Assembly: GCF_026210795.1 (NCBI RefSeq)
Contig: NC_089430.1
Location: 3,658,001-3,722,000 of the forward strand
Source of the DNA: Rhizophagus irregularis
Lineage: Eukaryota
Length of the DNA: 64,000 bases
Reading direction: 5' to 3'
Shown here: in pieces, positions 6,666 to 38,284 of the stretch
Layout: each line of letters starts with the position of its first letter
How positions within the stretch are numbered: the first letter of the stretch is position 1
Position numbers and translations under genes: made by a program
The notes under the pieces: generated by a model
Database searches by the model: none
The model's input: only the letters and a program-made list of their open reading frames with translations
Told to the model about the DNA's origin: nothing

Positions 6666-6724
6666 ATTTTTAAAGGGTTGGAACTTGGAAGTGGATTTTT
6701 AATTTTTTTATGTAAAAATGTTTA

Positions 6725-10520: not shown

Positions 10521-12465
10521 TTAATTTGCAATCTTCTTAGTTCCTTTTTTTTTATGCTTTCTTTGCTCTCTTTCATCATCATCATCCTTTTCGTCATCAT
10601 CTTCGGGAAATGACCTTGCAGCACTTATGTAATAATGAGACAGCTCCATTGATCTTGTAACATCTATTTTATCAGTACAAGCAAAGTCCAAATTTATTGT
10701 GTATAAATCTGTATTTGCCATAAAAAAGTTGCGACGAGCTGTCTTGTCATCATCCACCTCCTCACTTAAACAACTAATCCCGTAAATAATAACATTTCGG
10801 AGCGCTTTTTCCATTTCTTCTGATAGTTCATTTGAAACACATGTCAACCACTGACGAAATATAGTTGAAACTGAAACTTTGAATTTTAACTGGGAAATAT
10901 TATCGTTAGTGCAACTATTCTGATATGCGAAAACTATATTCGACTATAATTCGCTCCTCCATCCATCAAAAACTTTTCGAAAACGTTTGCACATAAAACC
11001 AATTTTTTGTTTGTTTTCTTTCTTCTTAGCAAAATGTGGAAATAATTTACTAATTATATCTTCTATCATTAAATTTCTAGTAGAATGGTCAAGGTGCCGA
11101 GTACGAAGGAATAATGCTCTTAATTCAACGTAAATGATATCTAAGACCCATTTTGGGAGAGAACTATAATTATTTTCTAATATTTCACTCATCTGTTTTT
11201 GACTATATTCGCGACTAGTTTTAGGTTCCGTATATTTATCTGGAACATTTGCGTCAGGTCTTGGGGAAGGACTTCTGGGGTAATGACGTTCTTTAGTAAA
11301 ATATTGAGACGGTAACTCCAAATTGTTATTTATGAGTTGTCGTTCGAAATTATCCCTATAATAAAAATAAATGGGCTCAGAACATGTGAATTATAAATCT
11401 TACAGATTTACTATATATATATTTACATTGGAGCGCGATTCTTCAAAGGCGGAGAACGTAGCGGAGAATGTGGCGAAGTCACCGGGGAAGATTCCAGTGA
11501 TGTTATTGTTGATATGGGACTTTGACTTTTCCTGTATTTCTCGGTCATAAAATTGACATACTCGGGTAAAATTAGGCTGAATTCATCCGCTATTTTCTTC
11601 TTAGTTTTATAGGGATCTGAAGATATATTTATTATCTCCTCAATCCTCAAGAACTCCTCTTTCAGCATTTTGTCTACAATTATTAAATATCAAGGTAAGT
11701 GAACTATTCATATCACAAAAAGAAAGAATAATGAATTTCAATCATAGGTCACCTATTTTTTCTTCATCGATTGGTTGAGGTGGTAATTGAGGTTGAGAAG
11801 GTGATTGCGACCATTGATATTCATGATGTGGCCATTGACGTTGCTGATTTTGTTGAGGTTGTTGAGGTTGTTGAGACCATTGAGGTAGAGGTTGTTAAGG
11901 TTGTCGAGCCCATTGAGATAGAGGTTGTTGGGGTTGTTGAGGTTGTTGAGGCCATTGAGATTGAGGTGGTTGCGGCCATTGAAATTGTTGAGGTTGAGAT
12001 TGTTGAGGTTGTTGAGGCCATTGAGATTGAGGTGGTTGCGGCCATTGAAATTGTTGAGGTTGAGATTGTTGAGGTTGTTGAGGCCATTGAGATTGAGGTG
12101 GTTGCGGCCATTGAAATTGTTGAGATTGAGATTGTTGAGGTTGTTGAGGTTGTTGAGGCCATTGAGATTGAGGTGGTTGCGGACATTGAAATTGTTGAGG
12201 TTGAGATTGTTGAGGTTGAGATTGTTGAGGTTGTTGAGGTCCATTGAGATTGAGATTGAGGTGGTTGCGGCCATTGAAATTGTTGAGGTTGAGATTGTTG
12301 AAATTGTTGAGGTTGTCGCGGCCACTGAAATAGAGTTTGGGGTTGAGATTGTTGCGGTTGTTGAGACTGAGGTTGTTGATATTGCGGTTGCGATGGCTGC
12401 CAATGTTTAATAAGCGAGCCTTTTTTACGAATTCCTTGTTCTTTATCAAAATCTTGAGAAGACAT
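10521..12465 (-). pseudogene. Cargo gene A: 3 exons, Q/P/W-repeat N-terminus, C-terminal LFLRTR domain; one frameshift and two nonsense codons
   Basis: MSSQDFDKEQ..SLIKHW followed by SQPQQFQWPQPPQSQWPQQPQQ repeats. Introns at about 11752-11676 and 11426-11358. ELRALFLRTRHLD..WRSEL*(TAG where paralog B has W)..RNFFMANTDLYTIN.. acidic/basic tail. Confidence 0.75.
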
Positions 12466-13739
12466 TTTAATGATAGTTAAAAAATGCAAGTCAAAAAAAA
12501 AACAAATATCTAAATATAAAAAAAAAAAAGAAATAATTAATTGAATAAAAAAAAAAATTTTTTTTATCCCCTTTTTTTTGCGTTGATCTTACCACATCAT
12601 GATCGAAAAAAATTAATCTTTTTCTTGCATCGTAATTATATCTATGATTAATATGGTTAATTACGAAAAGAAAAAAAATTCTTTTTGCCATTGATCTTAT
12701 TACATCATATGATACAGATTTTTTTAAGGAAAAAAAAATATGATTAATATAATGATGGATATTGTGATTAAATCATGGCCAAGTAAAATTAATATTTTTC
12801 TCACATTGTTACGATTAATTTCGAAAATAAGTTTCTTTTTTACCATTGATCTCAATAGATTTTCTAAGGAAAAAAATTTGATTAATATAATGACGGACAT
12901 TGTGATTATCGAGTAAAAATTAATCTTTTTTTCAATTTTTTTCTTTTTTTAAAAATTCTATATCGTGGTTATACCTATTACCGAAAAAAACTTTTTCTGC
13001 AAAAAAAGTTGTTTGCATTGATATCATAACACTACGAGTTATCTTTTCCTTGAACCTTCTCAAACATTTTAAGTCGTATAATTAATAATTAACCTCTCCT
13101 ATAAACAGAGAGCAACTTACTTTAATATAAACACGAATAGAGAGCGAGTGATTTGAACTAAGCCAAAGTTAGAAACAAGATAGTTTCGGTATCTTCAGGC
13201 GGTATGGATGAAGACAATTCACGTATTAGCCCTTGTTCTACAATTTGATTTTTATCAAACTCGCTCTACATTGATTATTTCAGTTCTGTCTCAACCGATC
13301 TCCGAGGAAGAAGCAAAGTAGAAATCAAAGAATGGGAATCATGTATGGAAAAGGAACATCCTAAAAAGAAAGAGGCAACGGTTCTGCGAGTTAGAAATAT
13401 CTGAGTAGATGATTCATGCTGAAGCTTCTCTTCTCTCATTTCATCACTGATGCTTTTTCTTATGCGCCTTATCCAAGAAAACATCCATTTCCCTTTCCTT
13501 CGATGACTTGGTATTCTTGAGCTGGTCTATGGAGTCGGATACATCTACAGCTTATATCTCTGGTGTTACGATCAGTGAAAAAATCCAGGTAACACCGGAA
13601 ACGATACGGAATCACAATCACATGCCCTCTGAATATCATCTTGAATGCCAAATTGATATGGTGATAATGTTAAATTCATATTGCAGAAAATATAAAAAAA
13701 AATTGTTCAATATGGAAGTCAGTAATTTGATGGATCAGT

Positions 13740-13930
13740 GATGTCAGAATCAACATCAGAAGTGCATATTGAAAGATCACGTCGTATTTTGATAAATTTA
13801 TCGATGTCGCGACGTTATAACCAGAAGTACTTGGAAAATCACAGTTAACTGTGTAGAGGCTTCCATTAAACGAGAAAAATTTTTCATGTGCTGCGTCATT
13901 GCTCCTCTTCCAAATTAATGATTTCTGCTT
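13740..13930 (-). pseudogene. C-terminal relic of the LFLRTR-domain family
   Basis: DAAHEKFFSFNGSLYTVNCDFPSTSGYNVATSINLSKYDV aligns with DARERFFTHTGNLYTVNNIFNNLSGYNIGSSIDLSKYEI in 14847-15677. Confidence 0.7.
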
Positions 13931-14846: not shown

Positions 14847-16682
14847 TTATTTTTTTCGCTTTTTAGTAGATTTCTTTGATTTCGGCTTTGGTTCATCCTC
14901 AGAGCTGGAATTTGAATCATCATCATCATTATTTTCAATTTCATACTTTGATAAATCAATCGAAGAACCAATATTATATCCAGATAAATTGTTAAAAATA
15001 TTATTAACCGTATAAAGGTTTCCGGTGTGAGTAAAAAAACGCTCACGTGCATCACTGTTATAAATTTCTAAACAGTGGAATCCAAAAAGAATTAAATTTT
15101 TAAGCGAATTTTCGTTTTCTTGAGATATCGGCTTGTCCGAAAATTTCAACCAAAGGTTGAATATTTCTTCAATATGACGACCTTTTAAGTACGGTTTGAA
15201 ATCAAGACTTTTGTCTTTTTCTTTACGTTTTTGATAAGTTTCGTATCTAAGCTTGATGTTATCCCATAATGTATTTCTCCAGTACAACCAGGTTTTACAA
15301 AAACTTTTTGCTACAATATGTAATATGTCAGGATGATCGTTCATAAAAGTTGGTAACAATGACGCTAAGAAATCTTCTATAATTTGATTATTGTTGCTTT
15401 TATCTAAGTTTCTTGTTCTTAGGAATAATGATTTTAATTCGTTAATCACTATTATTCTTAACCACTTTGGGATAGAGTTTTGCATCGATATAATATTAGA
15501 AATTCTCTTTTGGTTATATGATATATTTGCATCACGATCTGTGAACTTTTCAGGAGAATTTGCATGAGGGCGAATCGATGTTGGATATCTTCGATTCTCG
15601 AGATAGATTTTTGGCAGCTGTAAGCCTGAGCTTAAGAGTTCTTCTTCCATGTCATCCCTAATTTTTAAAGAAAACATTGTTATATGAAGATTACAAGATG
15701 ATAAATATGAAAAAAATATATTTGTTACATTGGATTCATCCGAGGGAGAGTTGAAGATGTAACAGAAGGTATAGCAATACCAAGAGAAGAAGTACTAGTA
15801 CTACTTTGAGTTATAAGAGGAATTTCTTCCAAGGTATCCCTAATTTTAAAAAACATTATGTTAATATGAAGATTATAAGATTATAAATATGAAAAAGTCA
15901 TATTTGTTACATTGAATCCGTCCGTGTGAGAGTTGGGGTCATAACAGGTGTAGAAGATGAGGAAGTGCGGCTTCGTTCTTCGCTAGCATAACGCTTGCCT
16001 CTGTGGATCATCTGCTCGATTTGATCATGTAAATGTTCAGGGAGCGTCATGGCAAAGCGTTCTGCAATAGATTGTTGGACATAAACAGGATTAACGGCTC
16101 TGGACATGATGTCCTCGATTTGTAGAAATAGTGTAGCGAGTAAATTATCTATATGATAGAAATAACGTTACAAGTTATTGTTCTGTTATTGAAGATTTCT
16201 TCAAATACCGAATATTATTAAATAATACAGACCAATTTCTTCATCAGAAAGTAATTGTGTTGAAGGATGCTGCAAGTATTGTGAGGAATACGAGGGATAT
16301 GGAAAGGGGTATGGAGACTGTTGTTGTGACGAGGGGTATGGAGACTGTTGTTGTGACGAGGGGTATGGAGACTGTTGTTGTGACGAGGGGTATGGAGACT
16401 GTTGTTGTGACGAGGGTATGGAGACTGTTGTTGTGACGAGGGGTATGGAGACTGTTGTTGTACCGAGGAATGATGCGGATACAAGGGGTATGGAGAATGT
16501 TGCCGTGACGAAAAACGTTGATAGGGATATGGAGGTAAATATTGTTGTGACCATTGAGGTTGAGATTGCGATTGCGAAGGCGATTGCGAAGGCGATTGCG
16601 AAGGTTCCCAATGCTTAATAAGAGAGCTCCGTCTATGACTTTCTTTTTCTTGTACAGGCTTATTACGATCTTGAGAAGACAT
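14847..16682 (-). CDS. Cargo gene B: 4 exons, (SPYPSSQQQ)n N-terminus, C-terminal LFLRTR domain; 1-bp frameshift in a G-run of the 27-bp repeat (~16414)
   Basis: Exons ~16682-16232, 16148-15910, 15839-15730 and 15658-14847 with GT-AG borders. IPKWLRIIVINELKSLFLRTRNLD. Paralogous to gene A with matching intron positions (EEI|G and PM|R). Confidence 0.75.
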
Positions 16683-17797
16683 TTTTTGATAATGGTTTCT
16701 ATGAGTTAAAAAATGTGGATCAAAAATTTTTTCAATTTTTTTTTTTTATTTAAATAATTTTAATCTTACCACATCATGATCGAGTAAAAATATGGTTAAT
16801 TTCGAAAATAAAAATTATTTTTTGCCATTGATCTATTACATCGTGTAATACAGATTTTTTTAAGGGAAAAAAAATCTGATTAATTATTTAATATAATGAT
16901 GGATATTGTGATTAAATCATGAACAAGTAATTTTTTCATATCGTGATTATATTACTTTTTTTCCTTAAAAAAATCATACGGTACAATAAGAACAATGGAA
17001 ATAAGAATTTTTTTTTTCTTTTCGAAATTAAATAGATTAGATTGAGTCAATAATTAGACTTTTCTTTTTTTCGAAATTAATCTCATCATATGATTACGGA
17101 TATTGTAATTAAATCATGATCGAGTAGAATCTTTTTTCAATTTTTCTTTTTTTTCTTTGTGATCGAATAAAATTCCATATCGTGGTTATACACCTATTAG
17201 CAAAAAAACTTTTTTGCAAAAAAAAATTGTATTGATATCGGTTTCCTAATAACACTACGGGTTCCTTGAACCCTCTCAAGCATCTAAAGTTAAACTCTCT
17301 CATAAACACAGAGAGCGCAACTTACCTTAATATGACATGAATACTAAATATGCTTAGTAGTGAGAACGAAAAATTAAATTTTGGGAAAAGGGGAAAGATA
17401 AAATGGATCAACAAACTGAAATGGATTTTAACACATGAATCCTTCAGATGAAATTACTATGTTAGTAGAAAATTCAGGAGGTGGAAATAAACAGTATAAT
17501 TATAATTTTGCTTCGCCACAATAACTTTTTATGATGGTAACAATCGTTATATAATTTTGATTATTTTCTACATGACCAAAATAAGTATATCGTCTTTTTA
17601 ACAAAATTTTTTAAGATCATCAAAATATTATTTTGATATTAGCAACTGAATGTTGGAACACATGATCGGAAATCAATAATTTAAGTATAATACTTATACG
17701 AAAAAATAGAAACTATCATGATGTTTAACTGAACAATTTATAGCATATTTTTTTTTTATTTTATATTATAGTGTATTATAAGTTTATTATATTATTA

Positions 17798-17975
17798 GGG
17801 GAGTTACACATATCACGTAATATTCATTTTATTATAAACCTTACCCCCCCCCCTGTTAGATTTCATAACCAATCAAATTATAATATTTATAAATCATATG
17901 ATTTAAATAAGTGTAACGTAAAATTTTAACTACCCCCTCCCCCCTATAATAATTACATAATATGTGTAAGCTCCC
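17798..17975. mobile_element. PIF/Harbinger-type MITE, copy 2
   Basis: TTA TSD, same TIRs and internal sequence as 6725-6906. Confidence 0.85.
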
Positions 17976-17999
17976 TTATTATCATAAAAAAAAATTGTG

Positions 18000-18705
18000 A
18001 CCCGTCTTGCATAATTGCGCTTCTTCACTCCAATGTAAATAAAATGTGATAAAAGATAATTTTTTTATTATAGTACTACCTAATATCATAAAAACGCTAA
18101 CATTTTATTTATTAGGGATGATATTGAAAAAAGCTTGTTGAAGCTGGATTATCGTTACCATTAAAATATCTGGAAATTTGATCATTTTTCAAAATTTGAT
18201 TTGACGAATCGTTCCAAGTACATCGTTCCTAAATAATGGCTTCAATTCGCCGAAAATTATCTTTCTAATCCACTTCGGTAGTGATTTGTACGACTCAAAA
18301 AGCAAACGTGCCATTTGAACTTGGGTAATGCTGCCTGAATTGTGTGGATCAATGAATTCTTTTTAAGGATACGCTGACGTGTTACAAATTTATAATAATT
18401 TGCGTAACGTCCTTTGGAAGAAATTAGTAGAAAGGTACATTAAATATAAAAATAGTAAAGAGAAGATTAAGCCGAATGTAAATCTAAAGAATCGACAAAT
18501 TAAGGAAAATACTAACGGAGGAGAATGAGAGCGCACTTAAAATCTCATCATCTTTGGGTTTTATTGTATTGAGAATTTATAAGATGCGCACGACAAATTT
18601 TTCTCATTTTACGGAAGCCTTTTCACAGTTACTTGTGATTTTCCAAGCTCTTCGAGATATAATATTGCGGCTTCTATGGATTTATCAAATTTTTATGTAG
18701 TTTTT
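18000..18705 (+). pseudogene. Inverted, decayed paralog of cargo genes A/B
   Basis: TAG|GGATGATATTGAA encodes RDDIEK..EAGLSLPLKYLE (cf. RDDMEEELLSSGLQLPKIYLE). Later ALKNLIIFGFYCIE..DAHDKFFSFYGSLFTVTCDFPSSSRYNIAASMDLS. Confidence 0.7.
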
Positions 18706-18971: not shown

Positions 18972-19541
18972 ATGGGAAAACCATCATTACATTCTAGGAA
19001 AACGGCCTGGCGTAGACAAAAAAAACGACAATATAAAAAATTTAAACAAAAAGAAATTGAAATATCTGATCTCCAGATACAGCTCCAGGATTTCCAAAAA
19101 GCTGTTGAGACAGCCGGTGAACAAGTGATTTCCAAGCTAGACAAAACTGAGCGTGAAAACGCAAATCTATTGAAGTGGATCGATATTTTTTCAAATCAAA
19201 TCTCAAGTCAGGAAGAAGAGATATATAAGCTTGAATTAAAGAGTTATTTAGCACAATCAACATCGTCTCTGTCATCTCCACCACAGCCACCATCATCATC
19301 ATCATCATCACAATTGTCACCGACATCTTTTAAAAGCATGGATGAGTACTTTAAACATAATCAAGTTAGTAATTTTTTAGGTATTGTGCAATTTTTAATG
19401 ATTTTTATTTTTATAATTAATGAATTGTTCTCATTTTTTAGTAAAAGAAATCTAGTAGTTCATTATTTTTTTTTTTTTGAAACCATTTTGAACTATTCTC
19501 ATTTTTTTTTAATAAAAGAAATTTTTGTAATATTGAAATAA
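18972..19541 (+). CDS. Hypothetical protein with basic N-terminus and coiled coil (true 3' end probably spliced near 19365)
   Basis: MGKPSLHSRKTAWRRQKKRQYKK followed by a heptad-like segment EISDLQIQLQDFQKAVE..LELKSYL and a Ser/Pro tract. The hydrophobic tail looks like intron read-through. Confidence 0.5.
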   Translation: MGKPSLHSRKTAWRRQKKRQYKKFKQKEIEISDLQIQLQDFQKAVETAGEQVISKLDKTERENANLLKWIDIFSNQISSQEEEIYKLELKSYLAQSTSSLSSPPQPPSSSSSSQLSPTSFKSMDEYFKHNQVSNFLGIVQFLMIFIFIINELFSFFSKRNLVVHYFFFFETILNYSHFFLIKEIFVILK

Positions 19542-20237: not shown

Positions 20238-21794
20238 TTATGAAAAAAGATGGAGTTTTAAAGAGCTAGCAATGTTTCTTCCGCTACGGGAAGGAATTTC
20301 TAGATCTTCTGTAATAACATCTAACTCCTTAACCTTTTCTTTGATATTTGCGCTTTCAGTTTCAACCCAGACTATTTTGAAGCATTTTCTGGAGAATTCT
20401 ATTAATTTATCTAGTGAAGTTTCCGATAATTTTGTAAAATCGATGGCTGAAACATATCGGCTTAAGATTCTCTTTAAAACCACCTCACGTGATATGAAGT
20501 TGTTTACTTCCTCGTCGGTAGGATCTGAACTTTCCGTATATTCACTTTAATAGAAAAAAAGTTTAAATCATTAAATCATTGTAGTAAAAACAACATAACG
20601 ATATGAACGTATCGATCACCTTTCTACAATTTGTCGAAATTCTTTTACTAATGTTGAAAGTACATTTTTCAATTGATATCGATAGTCGGAAAATGATTTA
20701 CGATATCGTTCGTTAATTGACTTCGCCACGCTTTGATAAGCATCATGCCCAAAAATTTTTTGTGTTATTTTATCAAACGCATGATCGGGCGGATTTCTAG
20801 TTCGCAAAAAAAGGCATTTCATTTCTTCGTCAATAAGACGATAATTATCCTAAATAGTAATAATATCAATAATACATAATACATCAGTAATTCTGCTGTG
20901 TAATAACGATTGTTCTTAATTGGTAAGAATGTAACAACCAAAATAAGAAATGGACTTTACGTTGTCAGATGATGACGAAGTCGAGGTGGTTAGTGGCAAA
21001 TTTGTTGATGGCTGCTTCGTCGAGACATCAAGCATTTTGTTTGCCAGATGTAGTACACTTGAATGTAAGACCAACCAATTGCAAATTTGCAATTGATTGG
21101 TCATTGCGCCAAACTGAACCAGAATTTCTTCTTCACTCTCTAGAAGTAATATTAAATGAGAATAAAATTATATTCATTAATTATGTTCAGATTTTATGTT
21201 TTACCGCTTTCATCATTTTCATTTTCTTCTTGTTCTTTATCTTGCTCTCTCCTATCCCTCTCTCTTCTCTCTTTCTCTCTTCTCTCTTTTTCTCTTCTTT
21301 CTTTTTCTCTTCTCTCTTTATCTCTCCTTTCCATCTCTTTCTTCTCATTTTCTCTTCTTTCTTTTTCAATATTTCTTTCTTCTTGCTCTGGAAGCATATC
21401 TTCATTATAACGAAGTAAATTTATTTTTAAATAAATTCGCAGAAATATCATTTCAATTGAATAATAAAACAATTATTATAAGGTATTTACCCATAATAAT
21501 TCTTTCAATATCATCATCTTGTCTATTATTACCTTCTCCAATATCTACATCTTGTCCATGTAAATTATCTTGTTCATGTTCACTTCCTTCCTCTCTCCTT
21601 TCATCTCTTTCCTTATTATAATCACGTGAAGAGTTGGCAACATATGTACGAATAGTTTTGGTAGTTTTTGCAGCTTTTGTTGCCTTGTCTTTTAGGTATC
21701 ATTATAATAGTATTAGGCGCAATTACTATATAAAATTTCAAATCAAAAATATAATTTTATTACCTTTTCCTGTTACTCCTCTGCGTTTAGTCAT
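20238..21794 (-). CDS. Cargo gene C: multi-exon, charged E/R/K-rich linker, TNQLQICNWLV motif, LFLRTR domain
   Basis: MTKRRGVTGK start with GT-AG introns. TNQLQICNWLVLH, EEMKCLFLRTRNPP, IPSRSGRNIASSLKL*. Clear paralog at 36516-38284. Confidence 0.75.
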
Positions 21795-21929
21795 GATAAA
21801 CAAACAAGGTGGTACTTATTGGTATTGTGCTAGTAGCAACGTAAAGAAATAGGTGATTCCTGACGAAACGAATACAGCATCATCTTTATTTATTTATAGA
21901 GATTTCTCCTAATATTAAGAAAAAATTAC

Positions 21930-24469: not shown

Positions 24470-24748
24470 ATGTCCTTTCCCAAACCTAGTAGAGAAGAAA
24501 CAGGTATAAAAAAAAAAATACCTCATATATTAATTCATTAAATAACGTATGATAATATTCATATAATTTCTTTCATATATAGATAATACGATATTGATCT
24601 CACTAGACGATCTAATAAAAGAACAAACCCGATTGAACAATCTTCGCCAAACCAACATTAAAAAGAAACGGCAACGTCCGTCTCGTAACAACCGAGCGAA
24701 GACCATGGGAGACTGGGCTCGGATGGTGAAAAAAGTATGATCATTTGA
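24470..24748 (+). CDS. Small 2-exon basic hypothetical protein (<70 aa)
   Basis: ATG at 24470, intron 24504-24582 (GT..AG). The spliced frame stays open: MSFPKPSREET|DNTILISLDDLIKEQTRLNNLRQTNIKKKRQRPSRK.. Confidence 0.45.
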
Positions 24749-24863
24749 TTCTTTAATATTTTGTGATAATTTGAAATATTTAACACTTTAAAATTATTTG
24801 TTAGAATTGATATTGCCATTATATGAAGTTATATCTCATTACAATACCGCAAAATATTACTAT

Positions 24864-25044
24864 CCCAGTAAAAAGTTCTTGTACCAAATATAGGCCAATT
24901 ATGAAATGAGTCCATTCGGTATAAAATTTGGCCATATGTATTTTAATTTTATCCCATTTATGGTCCAATTTTTCGTACCAAACGGGCTCATGTATAAATT
25001 CAATACAAACCTAATATAAATTCAGTACAGGACTTTTTACTGGG
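24864..25044. mobile_element. MITE with CCCAGTAAAAAG TIRs
   Basis: CCCAGTAAAAAGTTCTTGTAC / GTACAGGACTTTTTACTGGG. 2-bp TSD (AT, or TA if the TIR is one base longer). Confidence 0.8.
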
Positions 25045-25244
25045 ATATATTCACCTCCTTTTCAATTTATTTCAATAAAAAAATAAATCTTATGTAATTT
25101 TATAATTGTATATATCCGTAAAGCTCACCACTAGTGATTTTATCATAATAATTGATCGTAATAATTTAAAATCATAAAAATCAAAATTTCATATAAACTG
25201 GAACACGAATTGCTAACAATTTTTTTCTGATCATTTGTCTTGTC

Positions 25245-26170
25245 TAAATGTGCTGCGATCACGATATTCTTAAAATGTAATATCAATTTTTCAGAAAAGC
25301 TTTGTTAACCCAATTTCCGTTATGTCCAGCAGCCTATATAAATTTCTTTACATGTAATCGTCAAAACATCAATCAAGAGCTTTGTTAACCCAAATTTCTA
25401 TAGTTACGATGTTGTTCATTATATAATTCATTAACAGTTAATGTAACTAACTATTAACGAATTTTTTTTCTGATCAATTATCCCAAAATTCGATGATCTA
25501 AATTTCCGCTTATATCTTGCGGTCACAATATTCATATAAATTCCTTTATATATAACCGTTAAAGAAGTCAACTCTTCAGATCATTGCCTCAAAATTTCGT
25601 CAATGCATTGTAAGTAAAGAACCAATGTAGCCATTAAGAAAATTTCCCGATCAATTCAAATTTCCGTTTATGTCCCGCGGTCACAATATTCATACAAAAT
25701 TTCTTTGCACGTCAATTTTAGATCATTTTACCAAAATGTACTGTGGACAAAGAACTAACGATTGTAACTATTGACATTTTTTTCTGATCGATTTTCCCAA
25801 AATTTAAGAAATTAGTAATCTAAATTTCCGTTTATGTTCTGCAGTCACGCACGATATTCATACAAAATTTCTTTGCATGTAACTGGTTGTTAACACGTCA
25901 ATTTTAGATCATTTTCCCCAAGATTTCCATTAATGTACTGTGATCTAAGAACTAATGTAACCATTAACATTTTTTTTTCTCGAAATTTCGTGAAATTCGT
26001 AATATAAATTTCCGTTTATGTCCTGCGGTCACGATTTCATACAAAATTTCTTTACATGTAACCAGATCATTGCCCAAAATTTCCGTTAATGCACCACGGA
26101 CAAGGAACTAATGTAACCGTTAAGAAATTTGTTAACCCAAAATTTCCGTTTATGTGCTGCGGTCACGATA
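25245..26170 (-). repeat. Inverted-orientation array of the same motif (AAATTTCCGTTTATGTCCTGCGGTCACG) directly upstream of the transposase
   Basis: Copies near 25250, 25315, 25500, 25660, 25822, 26008 and 26142. Confidence 0.85.
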
Positions 26171-26298
26171 CTATGATATCCAATTGAAAATATTATAAAA
26201 GCAGTTAATGAATTAAATACACAAACGCGCATGGACATTTTTTAAATTTATGATTTTATTTCATTTTATTATTCCTTATTATAATTATTGTCATAGCC

Positions 26299-29119
26299 AT
26301 GTTACGAAATAAACCTCGAAAAGCGAATATTGCTGCAATACCTTTTCGTATCCGTAATAATTTTAGAAGGTTGCCCAACAGATTTTTATTATCGGATAAT
26401 GATGACAATGAAAAAATGGTACAAAAAGATTTTGAAGATGATAATATTAGTGGCGAAGAGTATAATGAATATGGCGACGGAGATGATGATTTAGAACAAC
26501 GAAGTGATGATGATCATATAGAACAGCGAAGCGATAATGGTGATGATTTAGAACAACGAAGCAATGATGATCATTTAGAACAACGAAGCGATAATGATCA
26601 TTTAGAACAACGAAATGATAATGATGATGATTTAGAACAACGAAGCAATAATGAAGAAGGTGATACCAACATGATTTCAACATCATCAGAGAATGAAACA
26701 GAAAGCGATTATATAATGTCCTTAGAAAGTGATGAAGATTATGAAACAATGTCGTCAGATAATGAAAAAAGACATGATTCTGATATCTCAGAAGAAAAGC
26801 TATTCGTTGATGAAGCATTGGCTAAAGATAAGTTACCATCTTTTGATGGTGATTTTGCTCCATATTTTCAAAATTTAACTACTGCTGCTTTATTTTGTTG
26901 GATTTATAAACATAATATTTCAACAAATGCATATGAAGATCTTGTTGACATTATCATGAGACCAGAATTTAATAGAGATCATATTGTAAAGAATATTCGG
27001 AGATTTCGATCATGGAGGGAGCATCTTCCTCTTCCCTCAATATCAGCAAAATCTATCTCAATTTCATCAAAAAAAACACCATCAACTTTAAAGGATTCAA
27101 AGATGGCATATCAACTTTCAATAAGTGATATCATTTGGAATATTCTTAACAACCCATCACTATTAAAGGAAATGTATTTTGGTGCTGGTGTCGATTCAAA
27201 AACAAAATCCGAGTACTGGCATGGTACCTTATGGGCAGAGTCACCTCTTTTCGGTCAAGAACAATTAATGATATCAGGGGGTAATTATTTATTAAATGCA
27301 AGCTGATGGTAGAGAGGCGAAGCAATAAAGTACAAGAGACTAACACTTTTTTCATATGTATATAATAGAGATATACCAATGCGGCGATTTTGTTTACTAT
27401 TACGATAATGAGCGAAAACTTGGCAGATTGAGAGCGATATTATTAAATGAAGAGAACCAACAGTATCGGCTAAGAATCCAAAAAGTTCTAGATTATAGTG
27501 ACTTGCCTGGAAATTTTAAGGGAGAATTAAGGCAAAATCGCTCTCTTTCCGGAGAAGTTTGGTTACAAGATGAACCATTCTTGACAATAACAACATCACA
27601 AATTTCCGAAAAGGTTGCTGCAGATACACTACGAATTACCGAAATACTTTATAAACATCATACACACTGGCGCATTCGTGATGCAACGTTCTCTTATCAA
27701 CATCCTTCAGAATATATTTCCATAAGGCAGCCACCATCTCCAACAATTCCGGTTTATAAGCTGTTTTTGGACATATACTATGATGATTTTGGAACATTTA
27801 GGAATGTTTATCATTCGTTAGGAGGTGTTTATGTGCAGTTTGGAAATATGCCTGCCCGTCAAAGAAAGTTGCTCAAAAATCACTTTGTTCTCGGGTTTGT
27901 TCCTTTCGGTGGTAATTTCAATGAATTCATGTTGCCATTCATTTCTGAAATGAAAGAATTCGAACAAGGAAAATTAATGGAAGTGAATGGCCAAGATGCT
28001 TGGGTGATAGCTGGTTTAGGTGTCGTAACTGCTGATTTACCACAAGGGAATGACATGTGTGGTGTATTACGACATAATGCCAATAAAGGTTGCCGCACTT
28101 GTACAGCCTCTCGAGAATCACTTACCAACTTCTCTCAGGATGTACCAGCAACATCAAGATATCATCACATCACTGACGATCAATTTAAAGAGATATTTGA
28201 TGAACCTGCTACCACAAGGCAAAGACGACTTTGTACTGAGTTTGGACTAAGAACAAGGCCTAGCATTTTGGATAGGCTGCTAAGAGAAAGGCATCTACAG
28301 ACACCTCAAGATATATATCATGCAACTGCTGGGAAGATTTGACGACTTCTTAAATTAACGTATGATCTTAGAATTTAATTAACTTTAGCTAGATATGTAA
28401 CGAACAAAATCTTTTAATAAAGCTTTTTGATTTCCACAGGTGCGAATTATTTTCACAAAAAGGAGAGGACGAGTTTATCAAAGCCTGGAAGAACTTTGAG
28501 AAACCAAAAAAATGGTCTCGTTTGCCAAATCCAATTAGCCACAATGCCAGTTTCATGATGTCTGACTATCTTAGGCTCGCTATGATAATGCCTTTTATAC
28601 TTAATAGTTTTTTAGAATCATCAAGCTTAAAGGAAAATGAATCCAGAAGCATTCTGCGACGAATTCAAGAATCACGCATTAACATGGCGAAAAATGTAAT
28701 AATTGCTTGTTGGGTATATGTAGCAAAAACAATGAGGATAGTTTTTGAAAGCAAGTTTACATTAGATTCGTATGACGAATTACAAAAATGCCTTGAAGAA
28801 GAAATGAAAATTCTTCTAAAGGTACAATTATTCATAATTCTTATATAATTTTTTATTTTTTATTTATCAATATATAAAATATTATTTAATAATGTGGCTT
28901 TAGGTTTTCCCTGAATTTGCTAACTTACCAAACCTGCATATCAATATCCACTTGCTGGTGCATGCAAGGACTTATGGTACTCTTATAAACACTCAAGTTG
29001 GTATCAAAGAGATGGTGCATCGGATCTTTAAAGCAATGGTACCACGAACAAATTGCAAGAATGTCGAGCTAGACTTGTTAAAGCGGTATACTACTCTCTT
29101 TGCAATTCGTCATTTAGTA
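26299..29119 (+). pseudogene. CMC/EnSpm(Plavaka)-like transposase of the outer element, 5' part
   Basis: LDIYYDDFGTFRN..GGVY..GNMP..RK..N, VVTADLPQGND, GCRTC, PQDIYH, PNLH..H motifs. BAH-like GDFVYY segment. Introns ~27281-27368, 28360-28439 and 28822-28903. TGA at 28340. Cut at FAIRHLV by the nested element. Confidence 0.85.
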
Positions 29120-30149
29120 CTTTACTGAAATATTCAAATCTAAAATAATATCTTAACGATATCATTATGAGATCGTAACGATTTCATGACGATTTTCTAA
29201 AATGATAACATATTGATATAGTTACGACTCTCTTAACGATAACGTAATAATACTGTGACGATACAGTGAATGATAACAAAACGATATCATCCAGATATTT
29301 ATTGATACTGAAATAGCATCATTTTAGTATCAGCACGATATCATCGCAGCAATGATACAGTGACAATACAGTGAATGATAGCAAAACGATATTATCCTAA
29401 CACTAAGATAGCATCATTTTGGTATCAGCACAATATCATCGCAGCAATAATACAGTGACAATACGGTGAATGATAGCAAAACGATATTATCCCGACACTA
29501 AGATAGCATCATTTTGGTATCAGCACGATATCGTCGCAGTATTATTACATTATCATAACTGTATCAGCATGTTATCATTTAAAAATCGGCATAAAACCAA
29601 TATGTTCCCATATTGATGTCGTTGAGATGTATAGAAAACAACTAATGATTATTCAGAATATCAATCATGATATCTTAACGATATTTAAATGTTATCAGCT
29701 TGGTATTATGACAATAATTAAAGTATCAATTTTATTAATAATCAAAATTTACTTATTACATATCTGATCATAAATAATAATTACAACATCGTTACTAGTG
29801 AAATTACTAGAACTAACTTTATTTCCATAGTATATGTGAAATTTAAAGCATTTACAATTATTTAATAATACCATTCAGTTTTTAAGAAATACGTGTAATT
29901 AATAATAATACCTACCATACTTACCGAAAATAAGATGCAACAATTGCAGACACAAGTGCTGTTTTAACACATACTAAATCCCTGATGGACATGGAATGAT
30001 TGTTTTGATTTTACCGCCAAGTCTATGGAAGCAACATCTCCAATTGTTCCTAAAAATACTCTAGTTGAATATGATATAAAGATAACGAGTGAGTAATAAT
30101 ATAATTTACTTATAATTTTTGATATTATAAAAACTTTGTTTATTAATAA

Positions 30150-30327
30150 CCTTTTGCAATATTTTATCGCCAATAGTTCCGCGCTCCTTGATAGGTTGTT
30201 ACTTCTTGGATGGTTGATATACGCTACATATTTCGTGTTGTCGGTCTTGATCAATACTGTCTGATTGGAATGGCCCTGTATTATAGAAGGGAAAATAAAT
30301 TGCTCTTAGCTCCAGGTGATTGATCAT
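30150..30327 (-). pseudogene. DIRS-type RNase H fragment
   Basis: INHLELRAIYF..VLIKTDNTKYVAYINH resembles the DIRS RNase H motifs HINxLEL and DNTTxVAYIN. Confidence 0.7.
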
Positions 30328-30735
30328 CTAAAGAACGAAGTATTAGTATTAGCATCTCATTTTTAAAGAATAAAGAAAATCAAGACTTCGAAGTAGTAAA
30401 ACCTTCGAAATCTTTGTATAAACTCTGTCCAATGATCAAGAAACTTAGAAATATAAAAGTGAACGTTAGATAACATTTGTTAAAATTTTTTTTTTGAAGT
30501 TTACCTTCAAAGTAAAGTCCAGGTCCGAACCTTTGGTGATATGTGTCCTGGAACCAACAAAAAAAGCAAATGAAGACGTTAGTTAACGTTTCGTTTAAGT
30601 GAAAAATAAAAAAATCGGATTTATCAAGCTTACCTTCGAGTAACAGCCTGGAAGCCGTGAACCTACAAAAGAGAAACTGAAATGTTTAGCTTCATTTAAT
30701 TGAGAAACAATAAATAAAAGAATTTCAAAGTTACC
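30328..30735 (-). repeat. Array of 4 hairpin-bearing introns separating 3 micro-exons
   Basis: Minus strand: GAAG|GTAAC, TCGAAG|GTAAGCTTGA, TTTGAAG|GTAAACTTCAAA, TTCGAAG|GTTTTACTACTTCGAA. Branch hairpin AACGTTAACTAACGT. Pyrimidine tracts end in AG except one degenerate acceptor (TTG). Confidence 0.6.
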
Positions 30736-31370
30736 TTCTAGGTGTAGTAAACTTTCGTTTGGAAGAGTCACTGAGCCATTCACCCTTTTAGCTTCAAACT
30801 TCTTTTTCTGTCGCGAAGTAACGCCCCAGAATGCAATCGTGCTGGAAAATCTGAGTTCGCAGTTGCCACAATCTTTCCTATCAACGAGGCAAGTTTTCGT
30901 ACGGGAGAATTTTGAGTTGTTTCGCCTTCTGACATTCCCTCACTAAGCTCTTTATTTTGTGTTTTGGCAATTTAAGTGTTATTGCCTTTGAATCGAATTT
31001 TAAACCCTAAGTAATCGATCACCCGTGTAGGAGTTAGATAAGATTTGTTTTCGTTTACTATGAACCCATGGTTCTACTAGCAATTTTACGATAATCGAAG
31101 CATGGTCTTGAGCCTGTTCTTTTGATGAAGCCATTATCAACAGGTCGTTTAGATAATCCACTATCCTTATTCCCTGAGCTCGATATTCTGGGACTTGTTG
31201 TCAAGCCGAACGGTAAACATGAGGAAATCGAATGCAAAATATTTTCGTTGGAACTCTGCTAGCGATATGTGATAGAAAAAGCTTGATTGAGGTCGATAGT
31301 GACCATAAAATAGCCGCGTCTCAACAATGACTTTACTAGGTCTAGTACATCTTGAAGTGGTTGTATTGAA
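30736..31370 (-). pseudogene. DIRS-type (tyrosine-recombinase retrotransposon) reverse transcriptase fragment, frameshifted and internally deleted
   Basis: VKSLLRRGYFMVTIDLNQAF/YHISLAEFQRKYFAF..GIRIVDYLNDLLIMASSKEQA..GFIVNENKSYLTPTRVIDYLGFKI/DSKAITLKLPKHKIK..KLASLIGKIVA..PARLH..NGSVTLPNESLLHLE. Confidence 0.8.
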
Positions 31371-31863
31371 CACGTTAGAATTTTTGAAGATTTGTAGCTA
31401 CTTTCGTTATGCTGTTTAGCTCTGGCGGTTTGACTGGCCACCCTAGTTGTCGTTTCCCGCAGGTTGATTCTTCCCTTTCCAAGTATTACTCTCATTTCTT
31501 CCTTTATAGTTGTTGTCGTTAGGTTTTTTAATATTGTGAAAAAAAACAGTAGTTAATCTGAAAAATAACTTACTTCAAACTTCAAAGGTATCAAATTTCA
31601 AAGAAACTGGTAATTATTTAACTTTAAATAAATATTTAAAAATAAAAAGTTTGGCGTAGAGGGATTTTATCAGTAAAACAAAAAAACAAAAAATTTAAGG
31701 TTTTTATTGGTTAATCAGATCCAGTCACGTGAAATAGCATTGCTAAATCACGAATATGAAGATCGATCGCTAAATGCATTATTTTAAATAACACTAAATG
31801 ATACCACCATTAATTTCATCCTACTAATTACAAATAAATATAATAAAAGTCCTTATTATAAAG

Positions 31864-34800
31864 TCATATAGCAGTAAAAAAAAAATCATTTTTTATCCAG
31901 CATTCATTCGTTGCATCATAAACAAAGTGAACCTTTTGCACACGGTCAATTACTAATATTGGGAATATTCTTCTCCAACATGTATCATAGGTTGCCTGAA
32001 TACGATAAAGAGGACATTTCAATACATGGTGAACTCTCTTAATTTCTTCAAACCAATCAATAATAATAAATGCATAAAATTTATTATTGTTGGCTTTATA
32101 TTTGAAGATTCCTTTTATAATTGCATAACATTCATCATGATTTTCTTCTTGTATTGTTACAAAGTCACCAATATGAAGATGGATTTTGGAGAAGACACCA
32201 CTAGTAGTTTCTTCTATTATATAGGTTGCCAATTTATACCAACTCATTTGAGAATATATAAGTGCTGACTTAAATCCAATATCTTCAAATGAAAGGAGCA
32301 ACTCAGAATTGAAATGTGGCAAGTTCAACATAATATTTTCACGATCTTGTTGGGATACCCCCTTTTTTAAAGTAATATGTGTAATAAAGTTTACTGGAGA
32401 AGTTACTATAATAAAATTACAATGTATAAAATTAATCATTCAGTAATCAGATTTGAATTTTAAAAAAAAAATAGTATCAAAAAATTTTGCACAAATTTTT
32501 CTTGATTAGAATTACTTAGTAAATAATAAAATTACAATACAAACCATTATCTTGTTCATCATGTTCATTTGATGTTTCTTTGTTTTCAGTAATATACCAA
32601 TTGGTTAATATATGCCTAAAATTTGATGTCAGAGAAGCAAACCCATTACAACTTTGAGATAACCTATAATCTATACCACCATCTACTAGATGACGAATTG
32701 CAAAAAGTGTGGTATATCGTTTTAATAAATCTAATTCAATATTCTTGCGATTTGTCCGGGGTACCATTGCTTTAAAGACCCGGTGTACCATTTCTTTGAT
32801 ACCACATTGAGTATTTATAAGAGTACCATAAGTTTTTGCATGCATTAGTAAATGAACACTAACATGCAGATTTGGCAAGTTGACAAATTCAGAGAAAACC
32901 TAAAAATCATTTATTATTAGTAAATAATTAATTCAAATTGCTATACTAAGTAATTATTTATACCTTTGGAAGAATATTCATTTCTTCTTTAAGACTTTGC
33001 TGTAATTCTTCATAAGAATTTATTGTAAACTTGCTTTTAAAGACCATACTCATTGTTTTTGCTATATGAACCCAACAAGTTATTATTGTATTTTTTACTA
33101 AATTAATACGTGATGCACCAGTTCGTTGTTGGATGTTTTTTGCCTCATTATTCTTCAAACTAGTTATTTTTAAAAACCGATTTAATATGAAAGGCATTAT
33201 TATAGCAAGCCGAAGGTAATCAGACATCATAAAACTTTCCCGGTGGCTAATGGGATTTGGTATACGTGACCATGTCTTTGGTTTCTCAAAATCTTTTCAG
33301 GTTTTAATGAAATCATTTTCTCCTTCTTGTGAAAATAATTCACAAGTTAATTTGAGTAGACGTCCAATTTTTCCTGCAGTAACATGGTAAATATCTTGTG
33401 GTGTTTGCAAATGTCTCTCTCTTTTCAGTTCATCTAAAATATTAGGCTGTAATTTCAATCCATATTTCCTACTAAGTTGTTTTTTTTGAGAAATAACTGT
33501 TTCAGCAGATATTAAAGCAAATTCAGAATCTGTCAAGTGATGATATCGAGAAGTTAAAGCTATATTTTGAGTAAAATCAGTAAATGAATCTTTACTTATA
33601 GTACAACTTCTACACCCCTTATTAGCATTTTGTCGCAATACACCAGCCAAATCATTACCTTGGGGTAAGTCAGCTGTTACAACTCCTATGCTTGCAATTA
33701 CCCAAACATCCTGTCCTTGTATATTCATTACTTTTCCTTTTTCAAGTTCTTTTATTTCAGAAATAAAAGGTTTTATAAACTCATTAAAATCACCACCAAA
33801 TGGGACAAATCCAAGGACAAAGTGATTTTTAAGCAACTTCCTTTGATGACTTGGCATATTTCCAAATTGTATATAAACACCTCCTAATGAATGGTAGACA
33901 TTTCGGTATGTGCCAAAATCATCATAATAAAGATCCAAAAATAGTTTGCAGACTTTCATGGAAGGAGATGGTGGTGGTCTTGTTATGATATAATCAGCAG
34001 GATGTTTATATGAAAAATCTACATTACGAATGCGCCAGTAACTATTATGTCTATAAACTATTTCAGTAATATGCAATGTTTCTTCAGGAATGAGATTATG
34101 CTGGAATATCATCATCACAGTAGCTTTTTTAGAAATTTGTGATATTCCAATTATTTGAAAAGATAGGTCTTGTAACCAAACTTCACCAGTAAGAGAACGG
34201 TTCCATCTTAGTACTCCCTTAAAAGCTCCAGGCAAATCATTATAATATAGAACTTTTTGGATTCTTAGCTGATATTGCTTATCAACTTCATTCATTAATA
34301 TTGCTCTCAATCTACCAAGGTGCAATTGTTCATTATTGTCATTATCATAATAATAAATAAAATCTCCACATCTATATGTCTCTATTAGATATAAAAAAAC
34401 AATAGAATTATTTTACACAAATTATGAATAAGAATAAATAACAAATATGATTATATGATCATTACCTTGTAATATTGTTAATTGTTCTTGGCCAAAAAGG
34501 GGTGATTCTGCCCATAAAGTTCCATGCCAGTATTCAGATTTTATTTCTGAATGAATACCTGGACCAAAATACATATTATTAACTAATGATGGATTACTAA
34601 GGACATGCCAAATAATATCATTTATTGAAAGTTGATATGCTAATTTTGAGTTTTTAGAAGTTGATGGTGTTTTTTTTGATGAAATTGGGATAGATTTTGC
34701 AGATATTGAAAGAAGAGGAAGATGTTGCCTCCATGTTCGAAATCTTCGGATATTTCTTACAATATGATTCCTATTGAATTCTTGATTCATAATAATATCA

Positions 34801-35447
34801 ACAAGATCTTCATACGCATTTGTTGAGATATCATGTTTATGAATCCAACAAAATAAAGCAGCAGTAGTAAAATCTTGGAAATATGGTGCAAAATTGCCAT
34901 TAAAATTTGGTAAATTGCTTTCATCTAGCGCTCTATCAATGAATATTTTTTCCTCTGATGAGGGATTAGCAATATTTTCTCCGCTTTCTGAAGATGTTGT
35001 TGTATCACTTTGTGATGATGCATAAACATGGTTTTCACCTTCTAGAGATGTTCTTCCTGTATCGCTATTATAATCATCATATTCTTCGTTTTCTGAAGAT
35101 GCTGTATAATTATCATCATTTTCTGACGATGTTGCATAATCATCATTTCCTGCATTCCCATAATCATCATATTCTTCGTTTTCTGAAGATGCTGTATAAT
35201 TATCACTATTTTCTGATGATGTTGCATAAATATCATCATTTCCTGCATCCTCATCATCGTCATATTCTTCATTTTCTAATTGCATATCAACATTATAATT
35301 ATTTCGTTGTTCATTACTATTATCAAAATTGTCACTACCATTATCATCATTTGGTGGTACTATTGTACCTTGTGGTTGCCTTCTAAAATTATTTCGAATA
35401 CGAAAAGGTAATGTAGTAGTATCCCTTCGTGCTCTATTTCGCAACAT
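31864..35447 (-). CDS. CMC/EnSpm(Plavaka)-like transposase of the inner element; 4 exons, one nonsense codon
   Basis: Exons ~35447-34467, 34382-32964, 32899-32543 and 32411-31864. LDLYYDDFGTYRN, VVTADLPQGNDL, GCRSC, PQDIYH. TGA at 33297 where the outer copy has W. Colinear with 26299-29119 plus 44351-45102. Confidence 0.88.
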
Positions 35448-36515
35448 TGTTAACAATCAAAATCAAAATTCTAAATTTTTATGAATATACAAAAATTAAT
35501 GCCTTATTCGTATATTTGCTTATAATGCAATAAATATTATTATACTGACCTATACGGTGGCTATAGTGACTGAAATATACGTATGTTGACTGAGCTAAGC
35601 TGAAGCTGAATCTCTGAATCGCCAAGTAAAAAATACACCAATCTTTTTTATATTGATATCTTGAAATTCAACAAAATCCCGGTTTCACCTTAATATGTCC
35701 TTTTCTTGATAAGGATAATCAAAATACACAAACATATATGAGTCAAACACAACGGATGCATTTTTCTTGATAGAACGTGACACAATTATTTTAGTTGTAT
35801 TACTTTCGCATCGATCAAATCACAGCACGTAAATAAAATAAAAATATTACAATAAAACAATAAAATAAATATAATAATGTTTTTTAATATATGTAAATTT
35901 ATTAGTGAAGTTGGAAAAATAAATTTAAAGGGGAATAAAAGAATAAAAAGGAGACGATAAAGTTGGAAATATAAAATAAAAAAAAAGTCAAGCCAACACC
36001 GATTATCGGTGTGGTATGATACCAATGATTGTTACTTAACAATGTTAATGTATTTCGTACAGAATTGCATATAATTTATTTTAATTGTAAAACTATTGTA
36101 AAAATTGAAGTCTGCATAATTAAATAGTAATCGCGAATTAATCATCGGTAGATCAGTATTCTATATAAGGTTAAAATTTATATTGTTCTTCCTAGCCAGA
36201 AATCAATCGGTAAATTAAACTAAATAATAGTTATCAATCGGTATTATTAAATAAATCAGGTGACCTTGTAGTAATTACATCTACTTGCGTCACATAATCT
36301 ACAACATGCAGATTTTATCAAATATCACTTTAACAAAATTTATCATGCATCATCGTGTATTATTTGTTATTAAGAAAAAAGAATTCTCAATGATGATATT
36401 ACTTTATATATCATCACATCATACATCAATAATATTCTGTCACAACAATAATATCACACCAATAATTTTTATTACAATATATTGCAACTTCACTGCATTT
36501 TATTACATTTTTTTA

Positions 36516-38284
36516 TTAAAATTTCAGTGAGCTAGCAAAATTCTTTCCACTACGGGACGGAATTTCTAAATTTTCCGTATTTTTATCTAATCTTTTGATT
36601 TGATTATAGAAAGCCTTAGTGTTGGTTTCGTTCCTTTCCTCCCACGCAATACTAAAACATTCTCTCGAAAATTCAATTAGTTTGTCCATTGATATTTCTG
36701 AAATTTCAGATATATCAACCGCAGAAAAATAGCGGTTAAGAATTCTCTTAATAGCAACTTCACATGAAATAAAATTGGTAATCTCAACTTGAGTTTCTGT
36801 TTCTGTAATAGTTCCTCCTCTTTATAAAAAAAAGGAAAGAAATTCATATTGACATTAGTTATAAATACAATTATAAATGCAAATAATATTATATTGATTA
36901 CCTTTCTAATTTTTTTTGAAATTCTCAGACTAATTCTTCAATTGACACCCTAAGCTGATAACGATAGTCTGAAAAGGATTTTCTACATCGATCTATAATT
37001 GATTTTGCTGTGCTACTATAAGTTTCAAATTCGGGAAAAATTTTTCGTACTAGTTTTTCAAAAACGAGACCAGGTGGGAACCGAGATCTTAAAAAAAGAC
37101 ATTTTATTTCTTCATCGATTAACCTATATTTTTCCTAAATAATAATAAAAGTTTTTGTGAAATATTTATGAAAATTATAGTCACAACAACTGAATGTATC
37201 GATCGAAATACAATAAACGCTTACATTGGATGCGGTTGATGGCGCGTGTGCTGGCTGCTGCACTGCTAGTGCTAATTGTGACGTACTATCCTTCATATTT
37301 AACATTTGAGTGGCTAGCTGCAGGATATCCGGATGATCAACTAGCCAATTGCAGATTTGCAATTGGTTTGTCATCGATTCGAATTGGGGGGGAACTTGAC
37401 GTCATATTTATTTTATTAATAATAAATGAAGATATTTATGTATAACAAAATATTGTATTAAACAAGATTTTACCAGAATAGTTATCGTCTTCTTTTTCTC
37501 TATAATCTTGATCATCTTCTCTTTCATTTCTTCTCCTCTTAATTCTTTCTCTATTCTCTATTTCTCGTCCTTCTTGTTCTTGATGACGACAGAGGGGATT
37601 CTGACGTTCTCGTTCTTGTTCTTGACGACCACGGTGAGGATTCTGACGTTCTCGTTCTTGTTCTTGACGACCACGGTGAGGATTCTGACATTCTCGTTCT
37701 TGTTCTTGACGATCACGGTGGGGATTCTGACGTTCTCGTACTTCTTGTTCTTGACGATCACGGTGGGGATTCTGACGTTCTCGTACTTCTTGTTCTTGAC
37801 GACCATGGTGAGGATTCTGCTGATCTTTGGAAAGATCTTATCATTATTTATTATTGTTTTATTATTGTGTGTTATTATCGTTTGTTTTTAATAGTTTTTA
37901 AGTAAAAATTAATATCTTCAATTGTATATAATAAAATGCAAAATTCATTAAATTCATAAATTAAGATTCTATGACTGACCTCCGAGAAAATCTATTTCGT
38001 CATCCTCATTGCTTATTTCATCGTTAATTCCTCCATCCTCATCGTTAAATTCATCATTAACTTCTTCGTCTGTTCCCGATACAGTTTTTGCTCGACCTTG
38101 ATTAGTTTTCGCAGCTTTTGATTGACTTTGAGCAATTCCTGCAGCTTTAATTCGACTTGCCGCGGACTTTGACTTTTTAGTAGGTTCTGTTATATAGATA
38201 GCATTAAAACCGCTATTCAAAAATCAAAAAAAAATCAAAAAAAAAGGAACCAAAAAATATTCAAATATTACTTGATCGAACCAT
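36516..38284 (-). CDS. Cargo gene D: multi-exon paralog of gene C with NPHRDRQEQE(V)RERQ repeats
   Basis: TNQLQICNWLVDHPDILQLA, EEIKCLFLRSRFPP, KRILNRYFSAVDI, IPSRSGKNFASSLKF*. 42-45 bp repeats at 37575-37820. Confidence 0.75.

Follow-up and report, generated by a model that had tools for sequence, protein, structure and literature searches.

Prospero/PROX1 proteins set neural and lymphatic cell fate, and their DNA-binding domain has no known origin; the available text of one source describes this domain, PF05044, as bilaterian-only (bioRxiv 10.1101/041806). In the sections of PMC4901127 consulted, the PROS class is defined by extra residues in loop 2 and by an extended third helix that forms a four-helix bundle. 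Here, we describe a 64,000-nucleotide stretch of the Rhizophagus irregularis genome (contig NC_089430.1, positions 3,658,001 to 3,722,000, forward strand; hereafter the window; G+C 30%, genes spliced) in which two nested DNA transposons carry a family of accessory genes, A to D, with a C-terminal domain predicted to fold like the homeo-prospero domain.

Transposons that carry several genes besides their transposase are already a known kind among CMC elements. As far as the consulted part of bioRxiv 10.1101/2025.02.11.637652 goes, giant Plavaka elements of red algae with the genes PAG1–3 measure 17–19 kb, against 15–24 kb for the elements described here; both are large and CMC-type, carry several accessory genes and have a repeat array adjoining a putative DNA-binding accessory gene. 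PAG2/3 differ in carrying methylase, SET, ParB and oxygenase domains, none of which we found here. Set against the lineages treated in PMC12730594, the accessory gene here is not TET/JBP, and that text contains no occurrence of Rhizophagus or Glomer-. Plavaka elements are prevalent in R. irregularis according to PMC11075540, where accessory genes are not described in the section on them. Second proteins thought to act on their own element's repeats are also encoded by VANDAL (VANC), plant En/Spm (TnpA) and PIF/Harbinger (Myb/SANT) elements; the A–D family would be an analogue of these, and we saw no sequence or fold similarity to any of the three.

What is new here is the predicted Prospero-like fold in a transposon accessory family, a more surprising outcome than the reading from which we started. 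The literature searched yielded no description of this accessory family, and none of a Prospero-like domain from a fungus or a transposon. The elements may be present in Repbase or in the curated R. irregularis transposable element library of PMC11075540. A diverse Prospero-like family in fungal DNA transposons would make the origin of the Prospero domain testable. The family also gives a name to a block of high-copy Rhizophagus orphan genes that are labelled 'split ends isoform' or hypothetical, and it sets apart an element lineage by its unusual CTTT..AAAG ends. In a genome where CG methylation silences transposons, it further provides a candidate self-regulator and, with it, a candidate target array.

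A predicted homeo-prospero-like domain

The motif E[LMI][KR]xLFLR[TS]R occurs exactly four times in the window, always on the minus strand (at 11,114 in gene A, 15,428 in B, 20,813 in C and 37,098 in D), against a mean of 0.0 in 200 triplet shuffles. A preliminary description of the locus had proposed this motif as the signature of an unnamed family, and the other marks that it listed are also present. B, C and D have a C-terminal S(G/R)xN motif, as do the relics at 13.8 kb (minus) and 18.65 kb (plus), and A has a diverged form of it; the segment [LV]Ix[FY]xxxC, described there as helical, recurs in all four genes and in the 18.5-kb relic; and all four low-complexity repeats, a different one in each gene, were found. 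The relic reported at 18.0–18.7 kb exists as two pieces on opposite strands (18.2–18.7 kb).

Structural prediction pointed to a single known domain. When an AlphaFold model of the C-type protein, with a predicted local distance difference test score (pLDDT) of 70.7, was compared with 48,161 chains, the sole match at a Z score of at least 5 was the homeo-prospero domain of Drosophila Prospero, 1mij (Z 8.5, root-mean-square deviation (rmsd) 3.2, 127 of 139 residues aligned), and the next match reached Z 4.5. A second search of the same model placed 1mij, the Prospero–DNA structure 1xpx (Z 8.4) and human PROX1 2lmd (Z 7.0) at ranks 1 to 3. The model of B (pLDDT 93.9, predicted template modelling score 0.90) likewise had 1mij as its only match at Z of at least 5 (Z 7.5, rmsd 3.5, 133 of 139 residues; next Z 4.2), while ordinary homeodomains (for example 4cyc, 3a01, 1lfb and 1b72) align to its residues about 60–139. 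A homeodomain-like pattern had been spotted from the sequence before the fold search.

Both features that define the PROS class appear in the predictions. Homeodomain structures align to the B model, with a spacing longer than canonical, and the predicted helix 3 is extended (residues 110–148 in B and 119–162 in C) and followed by further helices. The best-conserved columns, KxLFLRxRNP and [FL]xD[FY]R (in 52 C-type rows K 98%, F 98%, R 86%, P 84%; D 84%, R 88%), correspond, on visual alignment to the Prospero sequence given in supplement 1 of PMC4901127, to the last part of helix 1 plus the loop and to the FSNFR recognition helix. Homeodomain position 50 is T in 30%, S in 26%, G in 18% and N in 14% of the same rows, and S in both C and D.

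Like Prospero/PROX1 (PF05044; 1mij, 1xpx, 2lmd), then, the family is predicted to have an atypical homeodomain with extra residues before helix 3 and a long helix 3 running into a helical bundle; the domain likewise lies at the C-terminus after a low-complexity region, with matching helix-1/loop and recognition-helix motifs. In contrast to Prospero, the family is fungal, transposon-borne, multicopy and very diverse, has D at position 51, gives no significant sequence match, and mostly has a spacing from the helix-1 F to the helix-3 aromatic of 39 or 45, against 32 in the printed Prospero sequence. With Z values that are moderate and sequence searches that stop short of Prospero, we consider common descent with Prospero no more than likely, and true homology of the two domains has our fairly firm, if qualified, support; we do not file the proteins as members of the PROS class. 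The preliminary description had foreseen a helical, probably DNA-binding domain with variable low-complexity tails, which the predicted fold supports. It had also named a match to a known host protein family as grounds for giving up its reading: a match exists at the level of fold only, and since it is to an animal family rather than a fungal host family, that reading is not refuted.

One family in two old subfamilies

The four genes fall into two subfamilies, A/B (B-type) and C/D (C-type). No tblastn match links them at E 0.01 (elsewhere there is one weak C-to-A match, E 0.008), a similarity so low that profiles were needed. A first profile comparison of A/B with C/D was weak (40%, E 3e-4). 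A combined profile reached 157 clusters at 50% identity, whose 140 new clusters split into 41 B-like and 99 C-like after a false match with SEA repeats (P0379) had been removed. Profiles built separately for the two groups, which had first been gathered by a mixed profile, match each other at 97.9% (E 3e-13) over 159 columns, and reversed controls score no more than 12 bits. In a tree of 50 core domains the two groups separate with support 1.0, and A and B diverge deep within theirs, a sign that the paralogues are old. By these sequence comparisons, A–D and the relics form a single family whose two subfamilies are old.

Ratios of nonsynonymous to synonymous substitution rates were 0.115–0.25 between C and seven diverged metagenome copies, 0.165 between C and D, 0.27 between A and B, and 0.20 between the two transposases T1 and T2; as judged from these ratios, the family genes are under purifying selection. 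No Pfam family fits the A–D family in our scans (80 members at E 0.05, the output showing 25 of the 30 families; 16 proteins at E 10; 32 at E 0.001). Every named relative of B, of C or of the transposase comes from R. irregularis or R. clarus, and none of the B-type matches bears the name R. clarus (0 of 31 clusters). We attribute the names 'split ends', 'virilizer' and 'proline-rich protein 12' given in databases to transfer through low-complexity sequence, and rejected them.

Nested transposons and linkage to the transposase

Four transposon ends of the form CTTT(A/G)C(A/T)GAAA, each with TA before it, lie at 8,248, 29,120, 44,350 and 47,757, so written that all four junctions show CTTT..AAAG termini and a TA duplication, within the 2–5 bases of a target duplication expected of the CMCT clade. 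An intact transposase relative, P0110, aligns to 26,299–29,119, up to residue 856, and its match resumes at 44,350, where the T1 reading frame continues with one TA; the inner element therefore jumped into T1 of the outer element, duplicating TA. A–D and the relics lie inside two nested CMC/Plavaka-like transposons of Rhizophagus (Table 1). As the preliminary description had it, both transposons carry a C/D-type copy upstream of the transposase. C is divergent from T1, and D runs in the same direction as T2.

The same partnership is found at other loci. Linkage was judged by adjacency of accession numbers and locus tags, using partial member lists (15 of 123, 15 of 61 and 15 of 60 members), and in 22 short metagenome loci. 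In R. clarus a listed C-type protein lies within seven accession numbers of the transposase at 12 of 21 loci (null mean 0.37, maximum 4 in 20,000 draws), and at 6 of 13 once eight loci picked for a shared contig are set aside. In one R. irregularis assembly (OCT59 tags) all six B genes lie at most four locus tags from a C gene or a transposase, and in another a B gene and a transposase stand four tags apart on a 16,325-base contig. On two soil contigs (L014, L015) the transposase lies 3.5 kb from a C-type gene of 35% identity, and the two genes diverge as they do in the window. Among the metagenome loci, the two that reach a transposase are the two with at least 3.8 kb of upstream sequence; L019, with 3.1 kb, does not.

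The family travels with the transposase. Linkage at these loci, the element boundaries and purifying selection together support the preliminary description's view of an element-borne family. In one locus (L009) the end of C continues through a Tc1-like fragment into the 13.7-kb region, with E and B left out; from this arrangement and the lack of B-type matches named R. clarus, the C-type gene looks like the constant partner of the transposase and the B-type gene like an optional one. The family had been taken for the second gene of its elements; it is not the transposase's sole companion, as genes E and F, and elsewhere a Myb/SANT-like gene, ride along.

That gene has an RS-rich tail, and in other subfamilies its place is just upstream of the transposase; on L014 (2466–2897, minus) it sits between the C-type gene and the transposase. 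It was also seen in P0159, P0164, P0168 and P0195, with PF13837 in fused gene models, and recalls PIF/Harbinger.

The transposase and its lineage

CxxC and HxxxH motifs after two conserved aspartates mark the CMCT clade in the consulted text of PMC12730594. D465/466, D549, C568xxC571 and H796xxxH800 are kept in at least 14 of 15 transposase relatives, placing C(2)C and H(3-4)H after the second D but ahead of the last E as in that clade; the last E itself falls below this column count, and a KEM motif is visible in long relatives. The 5'-CA..TG-3' termini of most CMCT lineages are absent from all four ends in the window, which read CTTT..AAAG. Of the marks of Plavaka, PF18759 stayed below the cut-off (best 25.1 bits against 26.3, in one of four transposases scanned), and neither TGT..ACA nor CATCA..TGATG ends are present. 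Within what was consulted of PMC12730594, ESTA elements of the CMCT clade share the TA duplication, and ESTA and Plavaka share the C(2)C and H(3)H motifs, PF18759 scoring weakly in one relative here. Their ends are CA..TG, TGT..ACA or CATCA..TGATG, whereas CTTT..AAAG fits no lineage described there.

T1, T2 and their relatives contain two weak BAH-like segments (E about 0.01) and bear the UniRef name 'BAH domain-containing'; these segments suggest chromatin reading. C and T1 are 98–99% identical to many R. clarus proteins (window 20,238–29,119 and 44,351–45,102), clusters at 90% identity contain proteins from both R. clarus and R. irregularis, and 38 C loci are listed in R. clarus. Judging from these identities, it is possible that the element was recently acquired by horizontal transfer or introgression and then multiplied in a burst.

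Proposed function and its alternatives

Two kinds of repeat could serve as targets. Eleven matches to a 21-base CpG-containing motif occur in the window against 0.00 expected: between the divergent starts of C and T1 there are six plus copies beside C and four minus copies beside T1, and a further copy lies upstream of D. The motif is also found upstream of C-type genes in the close relatives L004 and L005, and in L014 and L019 another repeat, in four copies, replaces it upstream of the 35%-identical gene; retention in close relatives and exchange in the more distant subfamily fit a protein and a target changing together. In the consulted part of PMC8647823, R. irregularis transposable elements are CG-methylated and expressed ones less so. 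The second kind, GATATC, is concentrated at the four ends, each of which has an array (29 sites over 4 x 700 bases, or 10.3 per kb against 0.62 per kb elsewhere, about 17-fold).

We lean towards the reading that A–D form an old accessory family of CMC/Plavaka-like transposons whose homeo-prospero-like domain is probably a sequence-specific DNA-binding regulator of its own element, the C-type protein keeping the divergent promoters active. In the predicted structure, helices 1–3 would be an atypical homeodomain, with LFLRxR as helix 1 and its loop and F-x-D-[FY]-R as recognition helix, and helix 3 would continue into a Prospero-like helical bundle. The C-type protein would bind the CpG-containing array between its own start and that of the transposase, and its low-complexity tail would keep the C/T1 promoters active against host methylation. 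B-type paralogues would be optional additions multiplied by tandem duplication within the element.

Several observations weigh against this reading. On the side of the fold, the asparagine expected at position 51 is replaced by D in 84% of C-type rows, structural identity to Prospero is 6–10%, and Z values of 7.5–8.5 lie, according to the tool, in a range that may reflect a mere common helical arrangement. The Z-score search singled out 1mij for both models, but Foldseek, which had been suggested for the family, returned nothing at E of 0.001 or below on the PDB (1mij at rank 23, E 5.2 for B) and nothing significant on viral models. PF05044 was not matched in the Pfam scans described above, sequence searches of solved structures gave no significant match and no Prospero chain, and the C and B models are not fully independent, both alignments having contained both subfamilies. 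As to linkage and targets, among the members listed no such neighbour stands beside 9 of the 21 transposase loci in R. clarus or beside several B-type entries from another assembly, the 140 more distant matches carry neither names nor context for linkage, and D has one copy of the 21-base motif while A and B have none next to them.

The main rival, which we regard as somewhat unlikely, keeps the family and the fold but makes the protein a TnpA-like transposition cofactor, which would bind the subterminal arrays rich in GATATC and assist the transposase in pairing the ends. Plant En/Spm TnpA binds subterminal repeats; the GATATC arrays stand at all four ends, and every element of the window has a C-type gene, yet the inner element almost lacks the 21-base array. 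A regulator, however, would better suit the long variable tails and the presence of two to four paralogues per element, the internal repeat differs between subfamilies, and neither TnpA nor VANC Pfam families were matched in scans of the window and family proteins. That chance similarity in helical packing produced the Prospero match, the domain being a new helical or Myb/trihelix-like module of a protein that is still an element accessory, is unlikely in our judgement. The moderate Z, the low identity and the want of a significant sequence or Foldseek match speak for coincidence, as do language-model atlas leads to Myb/SANT-like proteins (0.77–0.81, C type) and Cas9 pieces (0.75–0.78, B), both below the 0.9 lead level and not borne out by the folds; but both subfamily models share one outlier that covers 91–96% of the Prospero domain, the three Prospero/PROX1 entries head the ranking, and the conserved motifs are in register with those of Prospero.

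Host transcription-factor genes captured as passive cargo, most of the family then being ordinary fungal genes, we hold to be very unlikely. The 140 distant matches without genomic context leave room for such an origin, and the elements do pick up other genes, as the Myb-like gene of L014 illustrates; against it, the arrangement of gene and transposase is unchanged at 35% identity, selection among element copies is purifying, and copy numbers track the transposase.

A regulator with a Prospero-like domain, as we prefer to see it, also admits a bolder and distinctly tentative extension. The homeo-prospero domain might be no animal invention but a large transposon-accessory family of arbuscular mycorrhizal fungi, with bilaterian Prospero/PROX1 derived from a domesticated CMCT-type accessory gene, and each element subfamily might possess its own Prospero-like protein and CpG-containing array as a co-evolving anti-silencing pair. 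A parallel for such a domesticated origin is the paired domain, thought to derive from a Tc1-like transposase.

Features of the window and neighbouring sequences

Table 1. Coordinates of the nested transposons, their genes, relics and repeats within the window
Feature	Position	Strand	Remarks
Outer transposon	8,248–47,757	+	24,277 bases once the nested element is subtracted; termini CTTTAC.. / ..GCAAAG; flanked by TA on either side; contains A, B, C, three relics, E, F and T1
Transposase-upstream end of outer element	8,248–8,948		subterminal array rich in GATATC
A/B-type 5' relic	8,992–9,081	-	63% over 30 amino acids to P0282
Gene A	10,521–12,465	-	B-subfamily; QWPQQP repeat; broken
B-type 3' relic	13,778–13,900	-	54% over 41 amino acids
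Gene B	14,847–16,682	-	4 exons; SPYPSSQQQ repeat; whole domain in last exon
B-type relic, two pieces	18,231–18,699		18,231–18,362 minus; 18,403–18,699 plus
Gene E	18,972–19,300	+	small; basic, then coiled-coil-like; convergent with C; same place in L005 and L010
Gene C	20,238–21,794	-	intact; 379 amino acids; 6 exons, all GT-AG; E/R/K repeat
Array of 21-base CpG-containing motif, TCGTGAYYGCAGSACATAAAC type	21,931–26,168		between divergent starts of C and T1; candidate binding sites
Gene F	about 24,460–24,750	+	small two-exon basic reading frame amid the motif array between C and T1
T1, 5' part	26,299–29,119	+	CMCT-type motifs; weak BAH-like segments
Inner transposon	29,120–44,350	-	15,231 bases; carries D and T2; sits in T1 at duplicated TA
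T2	31,864–35,447	-	in-frame TGA at 33,297–33,299
Gene D	36,516–38,283	-	C-subfamily; NPHRDRQEQE repeat; TGA at 36,925–36,927, R in database relative P0344
Single 21-base motif copy upstream of D	38,778–38,798	-	
T1, 3' part	44,351–45,102	+	split from 5' part by inner element

The only cleanly intact family gene in the window is C. Gene A has a frame change in its repeat exon and an in-frame TAG at 10,944–10,946, where the database relative P0355 has W. In B one 26-base unit amid 27-base repeats shifts the frame by one base, and a stop-free model is possible via another donor; its predicted homeodomain-like part spans about 15,470–15,240, and the helical bundle extends to 14,950. Gene E has no Pfam match. 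Contigs of four runs over three conserved C exons read through the introns in three runs and gave nothing in one, with no splice joints, and are uninformative on expression.

The DNA coding for TNQLQICNW is a near-perfect 34-base palindrome that encodes the same peptide on both strands (21,069–21,102 and about 37,340–37,372), and it recurs in C, in D and in several metagenome copies. A, B and the 9-kb relic are 68–85% alike in their upstream regions and first codons (12,650–13,139; 16,789–17,343; 8,991–9,258), and the A and B domains are only 35% identical; the promoter units of the three may have been duplicated or homogenised separately from the coding core.

Elsewhere in the window, the inner element contains decayed reverse-transcriptase-like fragments, DIRS-like by eye (30,400–31,550, minus). 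Short-exon genes at 2,582–3,867, 6,200–6,600 and 41,900–43,060, one set of which falls within the inner element, have near-identical introns of about 120–140 bases that hold an internal palindrome and a TACTAAC-like branch site. A 192-base insertion is present twice at 97% identity (6,722–6,913 and 17,795–17,982, the latter within the outer element). Beyond the outer transposon lie a 50-base tandem array (50,951–51,797), Helitron remains with DUF6570 (E 5e-35) and weak Helitron_like_N and Pif1 matches (56,400–60,700, minus), and a 540-base palindrome at 61,211–61,748.

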